From positions 144,402 through 208,401 of the forward strand of contig JAUIER010000003.1 of the NCBI GenBank assembly GCA_030429765.1: DNA of 64,000 nucleotides, written 5' to 3'. Shown one piece after another: positions 1-52,779 of the stretch. Position numbers and translations under genes: made by a program. This DNA comes from a bacterium. Its GTDB lineage: Bacteria; Omnitrophota; Gorgyraeia; Zapsychrales; Zapsychraceae. The number at the start of each line of letters is the position of its first letter. The first letter of the stretch is position 1. Below the pieces are notes generated by a model. That model was not told where the DNA came from, searched no databases, and was given only the letters and a program-made list of their open reading frames with translations.

Positions 1-269
1 AACTCAACTGGAGTGAACATCTGCCGGCCAATGCCACGCCGCTGCGGATCGGGGGCGATACCGCCATGACAGCCGCCAAGCCGGATGCCGTCGGGGGGAT
101 TGACTTCACCGGTGATCGGCTGAATATCCAGCTCAAACGCGACGCCGACGGAATCCCGCTGCCCATGCCCGTCCAACCCTTACGTCATATCCAGATCGAC
201 GGTCTCGTGCCTGTCATTCTCGACATCCGACCGATTAACGTGTTACCATTGTTTGTGGCTAGGGAGTAG
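1..269 (+). CDS. 3' end of a gene that starts upstream of the window; C-terminal ~60 aa homologous to C-terminus of the giant ORF (40908-52103)
   Basis: Frame 3 is open from nt 3 to TAG at 267-269 (LNWSEHLPANATPLRIGGDTAMTAAKPDAVGGIDFTGDRLNIQLKRDADGIPLPMPVQPLRHIQIDGLVPVILDIRPINVLPLFVARE*). High GC, like the core genome. The tail aligns with the giant protein tail ...DPVGGINFDADLIDLEIRGDHAPIELPFNPDQLQQLRIDGFSPVIIQIAPVTNLPLL. Confidence 0.55.
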   Translation, partial: LNWSEHLPANATPLRIGGDTAMTAAKPDAVGGIDFTGDRLNIQLKRDADGIPLPMPVQPLRHIQIDGLVPVILDIRPINVLPLFVARE

Positions 270-49900: not shown

Positions 49901-52103
49901 GGTTCGTCTTGATGAGGCGGATTGGCTCACGTGGTCTGATCGGCTAAGCGTGGTGGAGCAACTACTAGACACGCTCAAGCAAATGCACGACGTGAATATC
50001 TCGCATGGCGATATTTATGACGGTAACGTCCTGGTGAATCGACAAGGACAAGTTATGCTAATCGACATTGAGGATGGCCAATTTGATGCCTCCGGTGCCG
50101 ACATCAAAAAAGATCTGCAAAACGTCATCGCTCTGCTGCAGGATGTACTGGACATTGACTGGCTTACTTCAGTGAGCGAACAGGATTTAATCGATAGCGG
50201 GTTGCAGGAATTGTTAACGCTGTTACGTCAGCGGGATGACAAGATTTCTACGGCAGTGAATTTATGGCGATCGGTGAGAGCCGTCAACGAATACTTTACA
50301 GGTAGGTCGGATACTCCGGCGGCGGATCGGGCGGCGCTGGCCGGCGATCAACAGATGAGCGGGCTGAATTTTGATCCATCGATTCAGCGATTTGTGCGCG
50401 CGATGGATGGGCGCCGTGTGCGGGATGAATATGGCCGAGAGTATGAGTTAGTATTGGATGTGGTGGATCCACGCCATCGTGTTGTTGACGTGCATCTACA
50501 AACGTCAACGGGGCAGCAAACGGCCAAATACGTCATGAAATTTGTTGTAACGGACAAAGGTGTTCGTTCCGGCGGTCTGGATTTGCAGCGGGTCAGTTTC
50601 GACGGCGGAGTCGGCGGTACGCACATGGATCTGTCAGATATCGGGTTAGGTCGGGCCATCTTCAAATTGTTTGTGGATGGTTTGAGTGGCGGCGAAAAAG
50701 TTTTTGACTCGGTCTACAATATCCAGACGCTGGAAACATTGGCGAGTGATTATTATCTCGATGATAGCGGTCGGGTTCGACGAGTCTTTGACGATCATTT
50801 GGTGATCGACACATTTGACGACGGTGTGCCGGAAGGTCAAATCGGATTGAGCACCGTCTGGGGACAGACTTTGTTGGGGCGTATGTTTAGATCCACGGGG
50901 CTGACATTGTCAGAGTTATCGATTCATAACGGGGAGCGTACCTTGAAAAATTTGGAGGCCCTGCGGTTTATGCTCCGTCATTCGGCCTCGGGATTCGCGC
51001 CGATTTTTGATATCACGTTGACCAAAACATCAAATGAAGAAGCGGATCAGAAACAAGCGGGACGGGAGCTTTACCTTGAATGGATGCAACGTCCCGTGGA
51101 CGGGCGTCTGGCTGCTGAGCGTTATGTCGAAGGGCTGCGGAATATTGGTGAGATGTTTGTGTCAATGCCCCGTTACAGCAAACTCCCGAATATTTTCGGG
51201 CCGTGGATTGCCGATTACTTTAAGCCTGAATCCGTCGAAGCGCAGTACCGTGTCGTGCAGCATTTCAATGATAAGTTGTTGCAGTCAGGTGGTCTTGACC
51301 CGTTGACCCCCAGAGGATTTGAGAACGCGCTGCTCGAGCTTCACTCCAGGCTTGGGGCGGTTAATGATGACATTTCAATCGCGGGACGGATTCACGATGA
51401 CCAAAAGTATGCGCGCTTCCGCGAGGCCATCGAGCGGATGTTCACGCCGGCATTTGCCGCGATTATCAATTCGGGAGATCCGGACGCCGTGTTTGAAGAG
51501 GCTAGTCGAGTGTTTGTCGAGATTTGGTCGTCCCAGGTCTTCCAGAATGGCAATCACCGAATGGCCAGCTTTGTGATGAATTATATCTTGATCCGGGCCG
51601 GCTACCAGCCGTTTTATCTGGATCTGGTCAACGCGTCGGGGTATATCAACATCCTGGACAATGAGCAAATTCAATCGGCCGGAGAATATGAAGACGAATT
51701 GCTGGCCGAAATGCAGGAAGAATTTGCTGCTTTGCTGAAATTCACGATCCTCAAACAGTTGCCGGACGATTCGCGGACGGAAGCGGACGAAGCGATGACC
51801 TCCCAAGATCCGGTCGGGGGGATCAACTTCGATGCGGACTTGATCGATCTAGAGATTCGAGGTGACCATGCTCCCATAGAGTTGCCTTTCAATCCGGATC
51901 AGCTGCAGCAGTTGCGCATTGACGGCTTTAGTCCGGTGATCATCCAGATTGCGCCGGTGACAAACCTTCCGTTGCTGCTGGGGTTGCGGCCCGACGGCCC
52001 GGATTCTGAATCTGATAGAAGCACGGCTCAAATGGTTCAAGGTCCGGTGCAGCCATTCGCGGATCCACGTCGATATGAGACGGATTCTGTGGCAAAGAAA
52101 TAA
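40908..52103 (+). CDS. giant mosaic protein (3731 aa), no single-family assignment
   Basis: Uninterrupted 11,196-nt ORF on the same strand as neighbouring genes. Multiple recognisable domain signatures (see sub-features). ORF-track antisense ORFs inside it are all short. Confidence 0.85.
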   Translation: MSTEHSINNLLWIRRVVAHVLVVAMVVTTVWPASIVHAVQPATISHLPVPGTMVSVSPGYQPMALTGVRIYPANPLQFDFIIDPGDSQLDDQATQSASERLIKYFLTALTIPKNDVWVNLSPHQQDRVIPEHLAHTDMGRDMLSQDYLLKQLSASMLYPERDLGAAFWENIRRRAYQQFGSTDIPVRTFNKVWIVPDKAVVYEQQDAAFVVESRLRVMLESDYQAYLSSRNVSDAAGSSDQSTEQQIDQLTSDMIRDLIIPEIEKEINEGRQFAALRQIYQSMILATWYRRNLTQTLLSQLYVGQSKIAGVDIAEKDIKDKIYQQYLKAFKAGVYNYIREDIDPATRQVVPRQYVSGGLTMDVDKVFRTFNDVDTARQLNARLTDADQALLSARVVLNPEGQGSVQDLSAQLDDWLERLKSSTTDASMTADPDAPARLLAGEVISISAADIPLRAEAIAEVIEMYEADHEDELAAEDVTEEQIYAVTYRRLNSRAVQGLEAFLNQAVRLHREARPLSILFEGENFLHLAELIDNATDALRQRYQQNIRRAEIRFEILEYDRHIELQILDNGIGWTETGSKDFLSLGGLGTALHEAKKTFWEQNIDLNVSPRRDQQGAAVAIRIPKSDISIEDLFGAESAAAYFDLTTNPLAQMAPSAILVHPYISDSIYVDKMKGFDRALILFNKNYPSTPRLAAIDNVKTLVSRDGRYNSAVDMGDRVVFLGGHCRQCLSQAILQTAERAFKSGDEFRAILPTDGIYTTADLVSVGEQDPERAVLLEDVLSGLTPMDGSRFAYLTKEIKSSLMAAYAKDGLDQLSIIVESDGQREFVVEAGRERRRLILEFVGPQDRAMLVPDKGYGFKRGPLKANLKPYAQQLRVTFDRLSFGFLTAGELDALVNAVMKIRADSMAARPEFFGALPHRLTDQTARETFMSRILQQRTLYQERTNTDGSRMFSETDIHGMLFQKLIPISWLDQLMTDGLNRSQAMTIVTGWSDPLGVWTTEFKPLVEEFVSQGLSRTEAVSIILQWKNPKARWEKYLKPVRDELVRDGLSPTTATRVVIRWTNPDQKWSQELKPIRGQLIDRGMSLGDATDAVISWSYPLERYDAVQQSIALLAADSVILTGRIREIFWEHNYQGVLERLIQQPGVSRSKALDYAQPIKDFEERYLADRAMLFDAETEAKLDAPLSENLYFSERLQTVFRRNGLITHRDLTSMTAIEFTRLPEIGDILSVEAEQTLEQDGLTFGMTKSGLRVWLPTLYQTLRSDPVLGTKKRLMIILEDRGIEKFGDLVKYSYSDLVNMPGINWSSAMILEQRLQAHGLTLGVGKWVRKLQSLEDRAMLSDVPSLKFVKLVLPELNRQVNMSAIGRRVRTFRTDRSETQTQTSQRSGVKYATYLTLERGARADTDLKNMILLRNHFGTSLSVLVDGQASAFDTSGPILFDAIAPVVANNLVLLRTAMGLTLKELAAHVGMSSEYLVRIESGDLGEMTLQNIVSLSETFGIHPEVFISRKLELADMIEIISDTDQFRQLPETLDASRRREIGSRIAILRRLRQLTQEDVAVRLGITPDQLGKLENGRLQQLNVEFFVKLQSILDASVYFLLTGKENGHSRVELDVERVRQDFGENLIVLQEFFGMTYKTFAEKLGIPTRTLTTLKNGGLYQLEHINRVARRTRVPIHILLGSSAAFRDYLDGHSQRVLNANVPEQLDAEQVRRSLRLHLEAQGRSDQELLDYVSQYHTNDLTKFLSGKSQTVSLKTLLLAANFLGTNFLNVLTGSLWNGNVELETPAYMVSRMDRELYRAMQSIIHEQGRTDTVSSSAGLPSINVFLEFIHATDSSVEEVLRQAERDPVQDLLMNWGRVRKNSLEDAAMISTTLRARNARLREEYALQRLYQPSDRIEIVQAEYFSAFFRQNDIDIAAFARRADVPEWMVYDLLEGRELELAESIRVLKALYEVATLQEALEMHAFTYRYWQEHRGEADQQPLLNAQLIRERHNARTESSAYSPSPEALEVLMVHDIREAYTGTGSRRLNLTRFLSSADLSRGHLKYNFPMPDGSMLKRQLSMRVGTALDHVEMIIHKKADKMSGVSFLGYKLSSEGQYRRHRVSYFEYVNGIFEHQRATPEFVRQDRAMMSVPEFLFDADQLQYLGLPMPEFLRRAEVHERVKSMVEEAVDYTADDPALARRNREHARRSMPGIIIDLRNFDLPYSHLEVHDYEDGFMFFIPEGDRMLIHPYIDDVIELLGLLNGDEVEGEYPQASENDRLEPGYWNQWQRSSDWKTYVDEIHPTVASAVSHVLDRIKSQDKQIRVVDIFAGEGNFVQHLSGVLKQAHEDVNVAYEVIEGNPSNYRRALDRLSSNGNVTVHPPTDMLDITSLKDILRGSPDIVTALGGLNVSVISREDARKVAQMVFDVLRPGGFFVVSGLTPSLLHADDFRAMGYRIYNQTIPQNFYSRYQPVEVYILQKDAAMLGDTEADKHLKYLIQMIAGELGEDYVEAEEDEDLEGMARDRLMELSLQQRADFYALRGADVFGELIRRPLGSHRDDFDAELGMYTNLRLLGEMLGMTEGFVDFGNTMDPLQLPRLQERVEPWRELVRYVASAEDYATIRREIQQLAGMIDAPRVNEILQRSGLSRYEPEFWFVHLKSIGRMDDVWFDHFHKLAELFYKAFGATFDIGTETEEHTAGPDIFERVIELIVRSTKADPADLETFFADENPDVIALLYVITYGKAPDIHAVRFLYHGSPLVNIDQMIYDSDGMVDFRRGERKLDTNYLSFNPDVSQSYAQDDGLILEFDVAALLALPNKYILGPEIESEEITTTDPIPFTALTTRSKLEVAVKFWKDDAELDLALARALGFLSIVELQKFMRSADPAMLAPLEGDDDDYVENARALEAAIFENHFVSGVEYTALQEFWQESLEFFDESRADYVSERRRVYMDGQQNGEFTVVSRQQGDQAIADALRRAALWHRLNQRNVAGIPRLLSMGLTEDGYMWMRLRGIANAVRLDEADWLTWSDRLSVVEQLLDTLKQMHDVNISHGDIYDGNVLVNRQGQVMLIDIEDGQFDASGADIKKDLQNVIALLQDVLDIDWLTSVSEQDLIDSGLQELLTLLRQRDDKISTAVNLWRSVRAVNEYFTGRSDTPAADRAALAGDQQMSGLNFDPSIQRFVRAMDGRRVRDEYGREYELVLDVVDPRHRVVDVHLQTSTGQQTAKYVMKFVVTDKGVRSGGLDLQRVSFDGGVGGTHMDLSDIGLGRAIFKLFVDGLSGGEKVFDSVYNIQTLETLASDYYLDDSGRVRRVFDDHLVIDTFDDGVPEGQIGLSTVWGQTLLGRMFRSTGLTLSELSIHNGERTLKNLEALRFMLRHSASGFAPIFDITLTKTSNEEADQKQAGRELYLEWMQRPVDGRLAAERYVEGLRNIGEMFVSMPRYSKLPNIFGPWIADYFKPESVEAQYRVVQHFNDKLLQSGGLDPLTPRGFENALLELHSRLGAVNDDISIAGRIHDDQKYARFREAIERMFTPAFAAIINSGDPDAVFEEASRVFVEIWSSQVFQNGNHRMASFVMNYILIRAGYQPFYLDLVNASGYINILDNEQIQSAGEYEDELLAEMQEEFAALLKFTILKQLPDDSRTEADEAMTSQDPVGGINFDADLIDLEIRGDHAPIELPFNPDQLQQLRIDGFSPVIIQIAPVTNLPLLLGLRPDGPDSESDRSTAQMVQGPVQPFADPRRYETDSVAKK
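40938..41030 (+). other. giant ORF: N-terminal hydrophobic signal/anchor segment
   Basis: LLWIRRVVAHVLVVAMVVTTVWPASIVHA. Confidence 0.6.
41200..41600 (+). other. giant ORF: unassigned conserved-looking N-terminal globular region
   Basis: IPKNDVWVNLSP...GRDMLSQDYLLKQL...VWIVPDKAVVYE...ESRLRVMLESDY. No family recognised. Confidence 0.3.
42440..42790 (+). other. giant ORF: GHKL (HATPase_c)-like ATPase region
   Basis: N-box ELIDNATDA, D-box ILDNGIGW, G-box GGLGTAL. Confidence 0.6.
43842..44260 (+). repeat. giant ORF: four tandem 35-aa (105-nt) repeats
   Basis: GLNRSQAMTIVTGWSDPLGVWTTEFKPLVEEFVSQ / GLSRTEAVSIILQWKNPKARWEKYLKPVRDELVRD / GLSPTTATRVVIRWTNPDQKWSQELKPIRGQLIDR / GMSLGDATDAVISWSYPLERYDAVQQSIALL. 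Confidence 0.7.
44470..44885 (+). other. giant ORF: two RNA polymerase alpha-subunit CTD-like (HhH) modules
   Basis: ERLQTVFRRNGLITHRDL...LPEIGDILSVEAEQTLEQDGLTFG and KKRLMIILEDRGIEKFGDLV...MPGINWSSAMILEQRLQAHGLTLG, compared with the alphaCTD pattern RS.N.L......DL....N.G.KS..EI...L...GL.LG. Confidence 0.5.
45060..46770 (+). other. giant ORF: cluster of at least five XRE-family helix-turn-helix modules
   Basis: LRTAMGLTLKELAAHVGMSSEYLVRIESGD, LRRLRQLTQEDVAVRLGITPDQLGKLENGR, LQEFFGMTYKTFAEKLGIPTRTLTTLKNGG plus two weaker copies. Confidence 0.6.
47730..48300 (+). other. giant ORF: SAM-dependent methyltransferase-like region
   Basis: Motif I VVDIFAGEGNF and post-II LRPGGFFVVSG. Confidence 0.5.
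49750..50180 (+). other. giant ORF: aminoglycoside-phosphotransferase / protein-kinase-like region
   Basis: HGDIYDGNVLV (catalytic-loop-like) and IDIED (DFG-equivalent-like). Confidence 0.45.
51400..51670 (+). other. giant ORF: Fic/Doc-like region with Q in place of the motif His
   Basis: QVFQNGNHRMASFVMNYILIRAGYQPF vs canonical HPFx(D/E)GNGRxxR...L...G.P. Confidence 0.5.
51810..51990 (+). other. giant ORF: conserved C-terminal tail shared with ORF 1-269
   Basis: See finding; >25 aligned identities/similarities over ~58 aa. Confidence 0.7.
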
Positions 52104-52149: not shown

Positions 52150-52779
52150 ATGCGTTGGACGACAATCAGTCTAAGTCTTGTAATTCTCTTATCCACATAT
52201 GGTTGCGGTTGGATGAAAATGCCTTCCTGGCGGCCGTTCCAAAACGATAAAGCCGTGGCCCCGGTTGAAGAGGTGGTGGTTGCTTCAGTGGCCGAGGAGC
52301 CAATTCCCTTAAAGCCAGGTCAGGCCGAAGGTCGGGTGATTCGACCCGGGCGATTGGCTGAAGGCGGGCGAATTTTGCTCGTCCCATTTCGGGCAGGCGA
52401 ATCGGTGGTGGCCTCCGAAGAGCTGGATAAGATTGCCTACCGGGTGATGCAGGGGATCAGCAATTCATTGGGCGAGAATCCACCATATTTCGACATCATG
52501 ATCAATGATGAGACCGAGCTGCCCGACTACTACATAACCGGCTATTTTGTTGAAAAGCGTCAATCTCCCGGATTTATCAAGGCGCTCAGGTTACGTCAGG
52601 GATTTATTCTCGGGGTTGAGGGCAAGCTGGTCGACGCGAATACGCAGGAAGTGTTGGCGACGTTTAATGATGAAGTCGTTTCATCCAGGCCCGGCGAGGA
52701 TTTTATTCATTTGGGATTTCAGTTAGGTCACAACATCGGCGAGTTTTTACACCGAAATATTAACGCGTCAAGCGAATAG
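52150..52779 (+). CDS. hypothetical secreted/lipoprotein
   Basis: N-terminal hydrophobic segment ending in Cys (LLSTYGC). Confidence 0.55.
   Translation: MRWTTISLSLVILLSTYGCGWMKMPSWRPFQNDKAVAPVEEVVVASVAEEPIPLKPGQAEGRVIRPGRLAEGGRILLVPFRAGESVVASEELDKIAYRVMQGISNSLGENPPYFDIMINDETELPDYYITGYFVEKRQSPGFIKALRLRQGFILGVEGKLVDANTQEVLATFNDEVVSSRPGEDFIHLGFQLGHNIGEFLHRNINASSE

Follow-up and report, generated by a model that had tools for sequence, protein, structure and literature searches.

Near the end of a giant open reading frame, the 64,000-nucleotide stretch analysed here (the window) encodes a Fic-like loop in which the catalytic histidine is a glutamine. This raises the question of whether the loop belongs to a true Fic domain, whether the glutamine is a defect of a single copy, and what such a domain might do. 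The preliminary description had placed a Fic/Doc-like core at 51400-51670 and suggested that, within a giant effector-like protein, it could be a pseudo-enzyme or have a Fic fold whose chemistry is altered, an overall interpretation that is supported by the present analysis.

The Fic-type domain and its host protein

The peptide QVFQNGNHRMASFVMNYILIRAGYQPF lies inside that interval and is encoded in frame at 51534-51614 on the plus strand, corresponding to residues 3543-3569 of a 3,731-aa ORF. Compared with the canonical HPFx(D/E)GNGRxxR, the loop reads Q-V-F-Q-N-G-N-H-R-M-A-S. The replacement of the catalytic His by Gln and of the second Gly by His had been reported correctly, but two further changes had been omitted: Asn stands in for the metal-binding Asp/Glu, and Ser for the last (gamma-phosphate) Arg. 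The codon of Gln3543 is CAG, a third-position transversion from His (CAC/CAT). The features of the host protein are as follows.

40908..52103, + strand: giant ORF of 3,731 aa hosting the Fic domain (ORF list), uninterrupted over 11.2 kb
40935..41021, + strand: N-terminal hydrophobic segment LLWIRRVVAHVLVVAMVVTTVWPASIVHA (Kyte-Doolittle scan)
41025..41993, + strand: conserved N-terminal carrier module, very abundant in Omnitrophota
42489..42782, + strand: GHKL/HATPase_c-like ATPase domain (weak Pfam match, E=0.0016, and motifs in the sequence)
45246..45887, + strand: array of Xre-type HTH_3 domains, three of them found by Pfam
47766..48260, + strand: class I SAM-methyltransferase-like domain with motif I VVDIFAGEGN (weak Pfam match; PADLOC mad2, 5.8e-7)
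49701..50126, + strand: Kdo/RIO/Bud32-like protein-kinase-fold domain (profile searches and sequence)
51072..51749, + strand: Gln-type Fic-fold domain, residues 3389-3614, from a conserved Trp (YLEW...) to ...LLKFTI
51372..51395, + strand: flap segment ISIAGRIH, aligned to C. elegans FIC-1 and the counterpart of the FICD-type target-binding flap (AGRIR/AGRFR)
51534..51569, + strand: active-site loop Q3543-V-F-Q-N3547-G-N-H3550-R3551-M-A-S3554 (sequence, family profile, AlphaFold2 model and family alignment)
51816..51986, + strand: conserved C-terminal tail GGINFDADLIDLEIRGDHAPIELPF...PVIIQIAPVTNLPLLLGL ('GGIDL'), common to short family members

The Fic (fido) fold of residues 3389-3614 is genuine, and the motif match is far beyond chance. 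Taken alone, the sequence scores modestly: Pfam Fic (PF02661) gives 19.6 bits for the full-length protein, which is under the cut-off, 22.6 bits (E=2e-4) for the C-terminal 467 aa, and 24.4 bits (E=5e-5) for the trimmed 226-aa domain, which is marginal against the cut-off of 24 bits. A single-sequence phmmer search of PDB reached E=0.05 at best. A profile built from 28 family sequences, on the other hand, matched FICD (E=3e-16), C. elegans FIC-1 (E=6.5e-14), BT_2513 (E=3.9e-11) and IbpA Fic2 (E=2.9e-7), and 27 of the 28 relatives match Pfam Fic. The AlphaFold2 model of the domain has a pLDDT of 88.2 and a pTM of 0.88, and the top 50 PDB structures retrieved with it by Foldseek are Fic proteins only. 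In the model, helices H137-154 and H161-175 flank the active-site loop, and the flap segment is coil (DSSP) with lower confidence (pLDDT 73-78). Pfam and a structural model had been proposed as checks, and both agree with the proposal; a significant fido-fold match, on which it was made to stand or fall, was found. AvrB, which had been suggested as a comparator, was absent from every search result.

The giant multidomain host is likewise borne out, with several domains detected by Pfam. An identical protein, P0001, is found in the representative library on an NCBI contig of 254,838 bp. The host is an Omnitrophota carrier consisting of the N-terminal module (427 proteins at E<=1e-5, with about 50% identity among the best 120) and the GGIDL tail, and short family members consist of these two parts alone. 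Between them lies a cargo of about 3,270 aa with the GHKL ATPase, the HTH array, the methyltransferase, the kinase and, as the last element, the Fic domain. The other catalytic domains appear intact: the ATPase has its N-box (ELIDNATDAL) and its DNGIG and GGLG boxes, and the kinase fold retains the catalytic loop HGDIYDGN and DIE, its DFG equivalent. More degenerate HTH_3 copies can be seen by eye on both flanks of the array. The segment at 40935..41021 is the sole strong hydrophobic segment in the protein (Kyte-Doolittle) and, read by eye, resembles a signal peptide or a signal anchor. From this one segment we infer that the host protein might be exported; if it is extracytoplasmic, the ATP- and SAM-dependent cargo would be without its cofactors.

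The family of Gln-type domains

An exhaustive phmmer search gave 35 relatives, and positions were counted over 39 domain copies. Gln occupies the catalytic-His position in 32 of these, His in six and Lys in one. The Gln is a conserved trait of the family and not a private defect or one-off degeneration, because it is shared by so many related copies. The loop Arg is invariant (39/39), and F (36), G (36) and N (37) are nearly so. The second-Gly position (G2) is H in 26 copies and K in 11, otherwise T or N, and is never Gly; the last Arg is present in none. These sequences constitute a deep subfamily with the loop [Q>>H]-x-F-x-[D/N/E]-G-N-[H/K]-R-x-[A/G]-[not R], at an overall identity of only 19-30%. 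The H-variants occupy four or more distinct positions in the neighbour-joining tree of the family, that is, H and Q swap repeatedly while the remaining loop is constant. A pattern search of metagenome loci that was blind to H or Q returned only Q, with the exception of one canonical Fic.

The relatives are mostly parts of large, modular proteins with signal peptides, and those with an organism name come mainly from Omnitrophota. A small relative, P0035, carries the source name 'prophage maintenance system killer protein'. No conserved inhibitory-helix motif [ST]xxxE[GN] was found in the domain. Sub-threshold matches were obtained to the DOC_P1 model from 23 of 28 relatives and to the XopAC/AvrAC model from 16 of 28. 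The domain combines a loop of Doc type with a FICD-like scaffold; the loop is Doc-like because of the change from D/E to N, the loss of the last Arg to Ser and the presence of a side chain where the second Gly would be.

Possible functions of the domain

The reading preferred here, with a probability of roughly 0.55, is that of a ligand-binding Fic module that does not AMPylate. Canonical AMPylation would be excluded for the Gln-type domain of the host because the general-base His is Gln, the metal-binding acid is Asn in the window copy, His brings a side chain to the place of the second Gly, and both the gamma-phosphate Arg and the inhibitory-helix motif, the regulator of AMPylating Fic proteins, are absent. 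A side chain at G2 blocks canonical binding of the triphosphate and, as Lys in Doc, the AMP-transfer orientation of ATP (PMC8401265). The anion hole (G-N-x-R, with its invariant Arg) is maintained by selection, and binding of some phosphate-bearing ligand by the domain is therefore most likely retained; a nucleotide, or a target carrying a phosphate or nucleotidyl group, would be a candidate. Because structure alone accounts for the retention of F-x-x-G-N in those Bartonella Fic domains whose catalysis has been lost (PMC8401265), this argument is limited to the invariant Arg and the restricted choices of Q/H and H/K. The swapping of H and Q in an otherwise constant loop suggests that the residue at the catalytic-His position is probably a hydrogen-bonding or orienting group and not a general base.

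We lean slightly towards residual or altered catalysis over pure binding. Such chemistry might be Doc-like phosphoryl transfer or hydrolysis with the His/Lys at G2 and the Arg as working residues; in Doc, Lys at G2 goes together with inverted ATP binding and kinase activity (PMC8401265). The window copy is without base and metal ligand (Q, N), a counterpoint that favours a non-catalytic role. After export, the Fic domain might act on a target protein jointly with the other cargo domains.

A pure pseudo-enzyme, in which the Fic fold serves as a protein-protein docking or scaffold module that performs no chemistry on a ligand and need not bind phosphate, is possible but clearly less probable. 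The Fic domain of BepC binds GEF-H1 and is a precedent for protein docking by this fold, about a quarter of the Bartonella Bep Fic domains lack the His and keep PFxxGN for loop structure (PMC8401265), and base (Q), metal ligand (N) and gamma-phosphate Arg (S) are all lost in the window copy. Against this, the first loop position is Q or H in 38 of 39 copies and G2 is H or K in 37, alongside the invariant Arg and despite the low overall identity, a constraint tighter than a structural role needs. It is improbable that the domain is still a canonical nucleotidyl transferase (AMPylase or UMPylase) with Gln as a weak base or with a base supplied by the substrate. Replacement of His by Ala in IbpA did not fully abolish AMPylation and an alcohol dehydrogenase with a His-to-Gln mutation retained significant activity (reports cited by Khater and Mohanty, PMC4454073), and both the scaffold, nearest to FICD and IbpA, and the sub-threshold XopAC/AvrAC matches would be compatible with a transferase. 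However, the G2 Gly and the last Arg, which are both required for an NTP orientation competent for AMP transfer (PMC8401265; PMC4454073), never occur in the family; the Asn for the metal-binding acid in the window copy and the missing inhibitory-helix motif also speak against it. An artefact, whether a chance motif, a CAC/CAT codon misread as CAG or a decaying pseudogene segment, is refuted. Only the marginal single-sequence scores would suggest it, and they are outweighed by the uninterrupted ORF, the identical library protein, the recurrence of domain and Gln among the relatives, and the strong profile and fold evidence.

Comparison with known systems

Long Omnitrophota proteins have been described with a 'signal-transduction/regulatory' module (West-Roberts et al. 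2023; 2026 complete-genome survey). The host resembles them in its HATPase_c, methyltransferase and kinase content and in an N-terminal region without known domains near the putative signal peptide, but its 3.7 kaa is far below the 30-147 kaa of the Omnitrophota giants. Fic domains do not occur in the main text of either publication, and a limited term search of both did not find the carrier of N-terminal module and GGIDL tail.

Among relatives of known structure, the nearest in both profile and fold comparison (Foldseek E=9e-5, TM 0.56) are FICD/HYPE and C. elegans FIC-1, which belong to the class II Fic AMPylases/deAMPylases. Aligned residues extend from the flap segment over the active-site loop into the helices behind it; the F, G, N and leading R of the motif agree, and so does a ...G-Y-x-P...Y-Y region. 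FICD differs in having H363, D367, G370 and R374 where the window copy has Q, N, H and S, and in its inhibitory TxxxEG helix and TPR domains, both of which are missing here. The predicted N-terminal helices also diverge from FICD/FIC-1 (overall rmsd 8-9 A).

The P1 Doc toxin (HxFxD-A-N-K-R; EF-Tu kinase; TIGR01550) has K at the second-Gly position where this family has H or K, and neither has Arg at the last motif position. Doc retains the catalytic His, in contrast to the Gln of the window copy, and is a single domain of about 126 aa without N-terminal helices and flap, compared with about 225 aa on a FICD-like scaffold here. It is paired with the Phd antitoxin, whereas the window domain is part of a 3,731-aa protein, and nothing resembling an antitoxin was seen among the neighbours of its gene. 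The match to Doc is weak (19.6 bits; model cut-off 38.65; hhalign probability 70%), and P1 Doc (PDB 3k33, E=2) is a far more distant match for the scaffold than FICD (E=3e-16).

The sole published description found of a conserved Gln for the Fic/Doc catalytic His is Doc clade D2 (Khater and Mohanty 2015), with the consensus Qx[F|Y]x[D|E][G|V]NKR, described in silico from 45 sequences and regarded by its authors as under selection and not necessarily dead (PMC4454073). Compared by published consensus and description alone, D2 has the same Q...GN.R framework as the window family, and eleven relatives together with loci L001-L003 and L007-L012 fit its consensus exactly. D2 has D/E and K where the window copy has N and H, and its members are described as usually single-domain, whereas the window family is mostly found in multidomain or giant proteins.

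The Bartonella Beps are a separate lineage (FicTA-derived FIC-OB-BID, delivered by a type IV secretion system), and they are not detectably closer in sequence (BepC, E=0.027 with the 28-sequence profile). The His-less quarter of the BepFIC sequences simply lack the residue, whereas the window family is held to Q or H. There are nevertheless similarities, in that BepC and Bep8 have Fic folds with PFxxGN that have lost the His and/or gained a side chain at G2, and the Bep Fic domains, effector cargo for other cells, have been proposed to have non-AMPylating or binding roles (PMC8401265).

Locus and active-site loop

The Fic/Doc-like motif with Gln in place of the catalytic His that the preliminary description had placed at 51400-51670 lies inside one uninterrupted ORF of 3,731 amino acids. 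The observation was real and correctly read with respect to both the Fic fold and the replacement of His by Gln. The domain is best described as a Gln-type Fic domain with a Doc-like loop on a FICD-like scaffold, apparently carried as cargo by an Omnitrophota carrier protein. The features of the locus are as follows.

40908-52103 (+): giant ORF, 3,731 aa, with one N-terminal hydrophobic leader, a GHKL ATPase-like domain and a SAM-methyltransferase-like domain in addition to the features below
41025-41993 (+): N-terminal module of ~320 aa (residues ~40-362), after the hydrophobic leader
45246-45887 (+): Xre-type HTH_3 array, three matches by Pfam; up to ~6 by eye over ~44900-46700
49701-50126 (+): Kdo/RIO-like kinase domain, HGD...N (HGDIYDGN) and D-I-E motifs intact
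51534-51614 (+): Fic motif peptide QVFQNGNHRMASFVMNYILIRAGYQPF, residues 3543-3569, first codon CAG
51816-51986 (+): C-terminal GGIDL tail, residues 3637-3693
Upstream neighbours: EAL response regulator, GlgB, GH57 enzyme, GH77 4-alpha-glucanotransferase; farther upstream, thymidylate synthase, ApbE and PrmA
Downstream neighbours: lipoprotein-like ORF, epimerase, CBS protein, pyruvate kinase

The active-site loop reads Q-V-F-Q-N-G-N-H-R-M-A-S where the canonical Fic signature is HPFx(D/E)GNGRxxR. The changes of the catalytic His to Gln and of the second Gly to His, both stated earlier, hold on this comparison, and two more are found: Asn stands in place of the metal-binding Asp/Glu, and Ser in place of the last Arg. 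The loop retains the F, G, N and R of the signature HxFx(D/E)GN(G/K)R(xxR) and lacks its invariant catalytic His.

The genes flanking the giant ORF are ordinary chromosomal genes, with no toxin-antitoxin, phage or secretion-system context among them. A 209-aa ORF (52150-52779, plus strand) with a lipoprotein-like leader (...LLSTYGC) begins 47 nt 3' of the giant gene; it matches no Pfam family and bears no signs of an antitoxin or immunity protein. The window has 56 ORFs of at least 150 aa and forms a single co-directional block of 64 kb: all plausible genes are on the plus strand, and each of the few minus-strand ORFs of this size overlaps a longer plus-strand ORF. Scans of the whole window for tRNAs and Rfam families were empty, and the window has no second Fic-like copy.

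Evidence for the Fic fold

The single sequence is weakly consistent with a Fic fold. The Pfam Fic model (PF02661) scored 19.6 bits (E=0.0017) against the whole giant protein, 22.6 bits (2e-4) against its last 467 aa and 24.4 bits (E=5e-5) against the trimmed window domain, marginally above the gathering cut-off of 24. In a phmmer search of the PDB the single sequence was matched best by 3cuc, a Fic protein (E=0.05), and by FIC-1 of C. elegans; the FIC-1 alignment spans 106 residues from the flap through the motif. ISIAGRIH in the window domain is aligned to the AGRIR of the FIC-1/FICD flap and is modelled as coil (pLDDT 73-78) without strands.

Relatives of the Fic domain were recovered only by an exhaustive phmmer search with residues 3380-3650 against 1.84 billion representatives (E<=1e-3), which returned the giant protein itself and 35 relatives, the best at E=1.4e-14 and 32% identity. 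Word-indexed homology searches with the Fic region, as a single sequence or as a profile of A1 (a 28-sequence alignment of these relatives), gave no matches. The evidence based on A1 is much stronger than that from the single sequence. Pfam Fic matched 27 of the 28 members, and the A1 profile matched FICD (E=3e-16), FIC-1 (6.5e-14), BT_2513 (3.9e-11) and IbpA Fic2 (2.9e-7). When the family is aligned with FICD, its Gln corresponds to H363, its His/Lys at the second Gly to G370 and its Ser/Asp/Asn position to R374.

The structure used here is an AlphaFold2 model built with A1 (pLDDT 88.2, pTM 0.88), a single-sequence model having been set aside (pLDDT 51). It shows an all-helical Fic core and places the motif loop (155-160) between two long helices, H137-154 and H161-175, as expected for alpha4 and alpha5. 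The best 50 Foldseek matches in the PDB were Fic proteins only (FICD, FIC-1, BT_2513, CdFic, IbpA, VbhT, NmFic and EfFic), with E=9e-5 for FICD and an rmsd of 4.1 Å over 183 columns for VbhT. The trimmed window domain has a true Fic fold. The preliminary description had made its proposal depend on a significant fido-fold match, and such matches were found, since the A1 profile, the AlphaFold2 model and Foldseek all give Fic. Its suggested comparison with AvrB detected no relationship: AvrB is absent both from the profile-versus-PDB lists (E<=10) and from the best 50 Foldseek matches, and the model is without the inserted beta (upper-lobe) domain, so an AvrB-type fido protein was rejected.

The Gln-type family and its carrier

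Residues at the motif positions were counted in 39 domain copies from 36 proteins, and these counts indicate that Gln at the catalytic position is a family trait.

Table. Residues at Fic motif positions among 39 domain copies
Catalytic His position: Q 32, H 6, K 1
Phe position: F 36
Metal-binding acid position: D 19, N 11, E 7
First Gly position: G 36
Asn position: N 37
Second Gly position: H 26, K 11, T 1, N 1; Gly in none
First Arg position: R 39
Last Arg position: Arg in none

Every copy of the GNKR type has Gln together with Asp, and all six copies with His are of the GNHR type. In a neighbour-joining tree the His copies do not form one group but occur at four or more separate positions, and one of them (P0026) groups beside the window domain and P0006, a 6,460-aa Omnitrophota protein. 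Metagenome loci retrieved with patterns that leave the H/Q position free all have Gln, except one canonical HPFRDGNGR Fic. Searched for as the regular expression [ST]xxxE[GN], the inhibitory-helix motif is missing in the window domain and in 34 of the 39 related copies; the few remaining matches are at non-equivalent positions, and the motif is not conserved. NCBIfam holds no dedicated model for the family. Tandem Gln-type Fic copies occur in P0003 (385-610, 636-850), P0008 (352-577, 624-843) and P0022 (5603-5828, 5829-6052). The P0008 pair, with one Gln copy (QPFENGNTR) and one His copy (HAFNDGNHR), offers a natural paired comparison.

Relatives with taxonomy are mostly from Omnitrophota, with single MAG matches labelled Planctomycetia, Patescibacteria and Bacilli. 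Pattern scans with A2, a closer subset of A1, gave five genome loci and eight metagenome loci, and a scan of genome contigs with a single 667-aa query gave no relative. Viral contigs scanned with A2 gave no loci, so nothing points to a phage origin. Most relatives begin with a signal-peptide-like leader. Their partner domains differ (ChaN/Tiki, RamC_N, Methyltransf_28), and therefore the Gln-type Fic domain behaves as a mobile module.

The N-terminal module of the giant ORF matched 427 proteins (E<=1e-5). Identity is 47-55% for the best 120 of them, and the matches that carry a name are almost all from Candidatus Omnitrophica/Omnitrophota. Complete short members of 438-549 aa consist of this module and a C-terminal tail with the pattern GGIDL...LDLQ(I/V)(K/R)RDG.G(I/V)PLP...PVI..I.P...L..LG. 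The giant ORF ends likewise, and its tail, defined by GGI[DN][FL]...PVI..I.P...L..LG, matches those of the related proteins P0105, P0113 and P0137. Both module and tail are present in the Fic-bearing relatives P0003, P0027, P0029 and P0032, and no Pfam model falls on either end of the giant ORF in a whole-protein scan. Because the short members and the Fic-bearing relatives share both its ends, the host protein resembles an Omnitrophota carrier into which ~3,270 aa of cargo have been inserted between them.

The cargo region includes other features. Residues 1177-1248, immediately upstream of the HTH array, weakly resemble the C-terminal domain of the RNA polymerase alpha subunit (NF003519, E=0.003), and a DNA-binding array in the middle of a protein with a signal-peptide-like leader would be an odd cargo if exported. 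The kinase-fold domain at 49701-50126 is most similar to PADLOC MkoA (E=8.6e-12), followed by weaker matches to the PD-T4-6 and MADS Mad6 kinases, all resemblances to anti-phage defence kinases. A second GGIDL-type tail, AVGGIDFTGDRLNIQLKRDADGIPLPMPV...PVILDIRPINVLPLFVARE*, 39% identical to that of the giant ORF, is encoded at 84-266 (plus strand), so that a further carrier-family member runs off the 5' end of the window.

Possible functions and comparison with known systems

The activities of signature-motif Fic/Doc proteins are AMP, UMP or GMP transfer, phosphocholination, phosphorylation and deAMPylation, and to our knowledge every characterised one relies on the motif His. The present family keeps the Fic fold, the G-N-x-R anion hole and the restricted Q/H and H/K positions, and it has lost the last Arg and the inhibitory helix. 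In Fic proteins the His serves as general base, the Asp/Glu is a Mg ligand and the last Arg is a gamma-phosphate ligand (PMC4454073). The triphosphate cannot bind in the canonical way when the second-Gly position carries a side chain, and in Doc, where this residue is Lys, ATP binds inverted and the protein has kinase activity (PMC8401265).

Given these residues, classical AMPylation would not be possible for the window domain. A canonical transferase with a weak base would share the retained fold and anion hole and would have to act with the last Arg gone and the second Gly occupied by a side chain; such an enzyme is improbable. That the domain is an artefact, as the marginal single-sequence scores might suggest, is barely conceivable beside the agreement of profile, model and structural search. 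A purely structural pseudo-enzyme is a stronger alternative, compatible with the lost residues, and is nevertheless unlikely: phosphate-ligand binding is probably retained because the invariant Arg exceeds the structurally required PFxxGN. The exchange of His and Gln recurs while the rest of the loop is constant, which suggests that the residue at this position orients or hydrogen-bonds and abstracts no proton. The preferred reading, with a probability of roughly 0.55, is a non-AMPylating but ligand-binding Fic module, leaning slightly towards residual or altered catalysis.

A bolder and rather doubtful proposal is that the Gln-type Fic domains constitute a catalytically active class of their own, carried between the N-terminal module and GGIDL tail of the Omnitrophota carrier. 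The His/Lys at the second Gly and the invariant Arg would then do the chemistry, with Gln only orienting water or the acceptor, and the candidate activities would be those of a phosphotransferase, a phosphohydrolase or a de-modifying enzyme, none needing a general base. The domains would be exchangeable cargo of an export carrier and would manipulate host or prey cells.

A deep family that holds the catalytic position to Gln, occasionally His, and retains the phosphate-binding Arg suggests either that the fold supports chemistry without a general base or that it serves as a dedicated phospho-ligand reader, and either, if true, widens the knowledge of the Fic fold. The locus and its relatives provide a concrete, testable set of proteins for a Gln variant flagged in silico in 2015. 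Fic is one cargo among the kinase, methyltransferase, ATPase and HTH modules of an abundant carrier, a context that bears on how ultra-small, host-dependent Omnitrophota might build and export multi-effector proteins. The finding would matter more if Gln-type domains prove to be active enzymes.

A single published precedent was found for Gln at the Fic/Doc catalytic position. This is clade D2 of Doc, with the consensus Qx[F|Y]x[D|E][G|V]NKR, which was predicted in 2015 from 45 mostly single-domain sequences (Khater and Mohanty; PMC4454073) and for which no follow-up or characterisation was found. No other description came out of literature searches that paired Fic with Omnitrophota or with a missing catalytic His, and Fic is absent from the main texts of the Omnitrophota giant-protein papers (West-Roberts et al. 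2023; the 2026 complete-genome survey). Fic folds without His can act through binding, as in the Bep Fic domains of Bartonella (PMC8401265).

A Doc toxin with an adjacent antitoxin was ruled out. The domain sits within a 3,731-aa ORF, its similarity to Doc is weak, and the flanks are the 4-alpha-glucanotransferase and the lipoprotein-like ORF without family match, with no antitoxin-like neighbour. The DOC_P1 model (TIGR01550) scored 19.6 bits (E=8e-4) against the trimmed domain and 15 bits against the whole protein, below its cut-off of 38.65, and these matches are limited to the motif helices. P1 Doc itself compares with the family at E=2 (PDB 3k33) and an hhalign probability of 70%.

The closest solved relatives of the window domain are FICD and FIC-1. 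Its scaffold is FICD-like and not Doc-like, whereas the closest motif logic is that of Doc. Like Doc, HxFx(D/N)(A/G)NKR, the window loop has N at position 5, G-N, a side chain at the second Gly and no last Arg; unlike Doc, it has Q for H and H for K. The D2 consensus is fitted by eleven relatives and nine fetched loci, but QVFQNGNHR of the window departs from it at D/E (N) and at K (H), and unlike D2 the window copy is on a larger scaffold within a giant protein.
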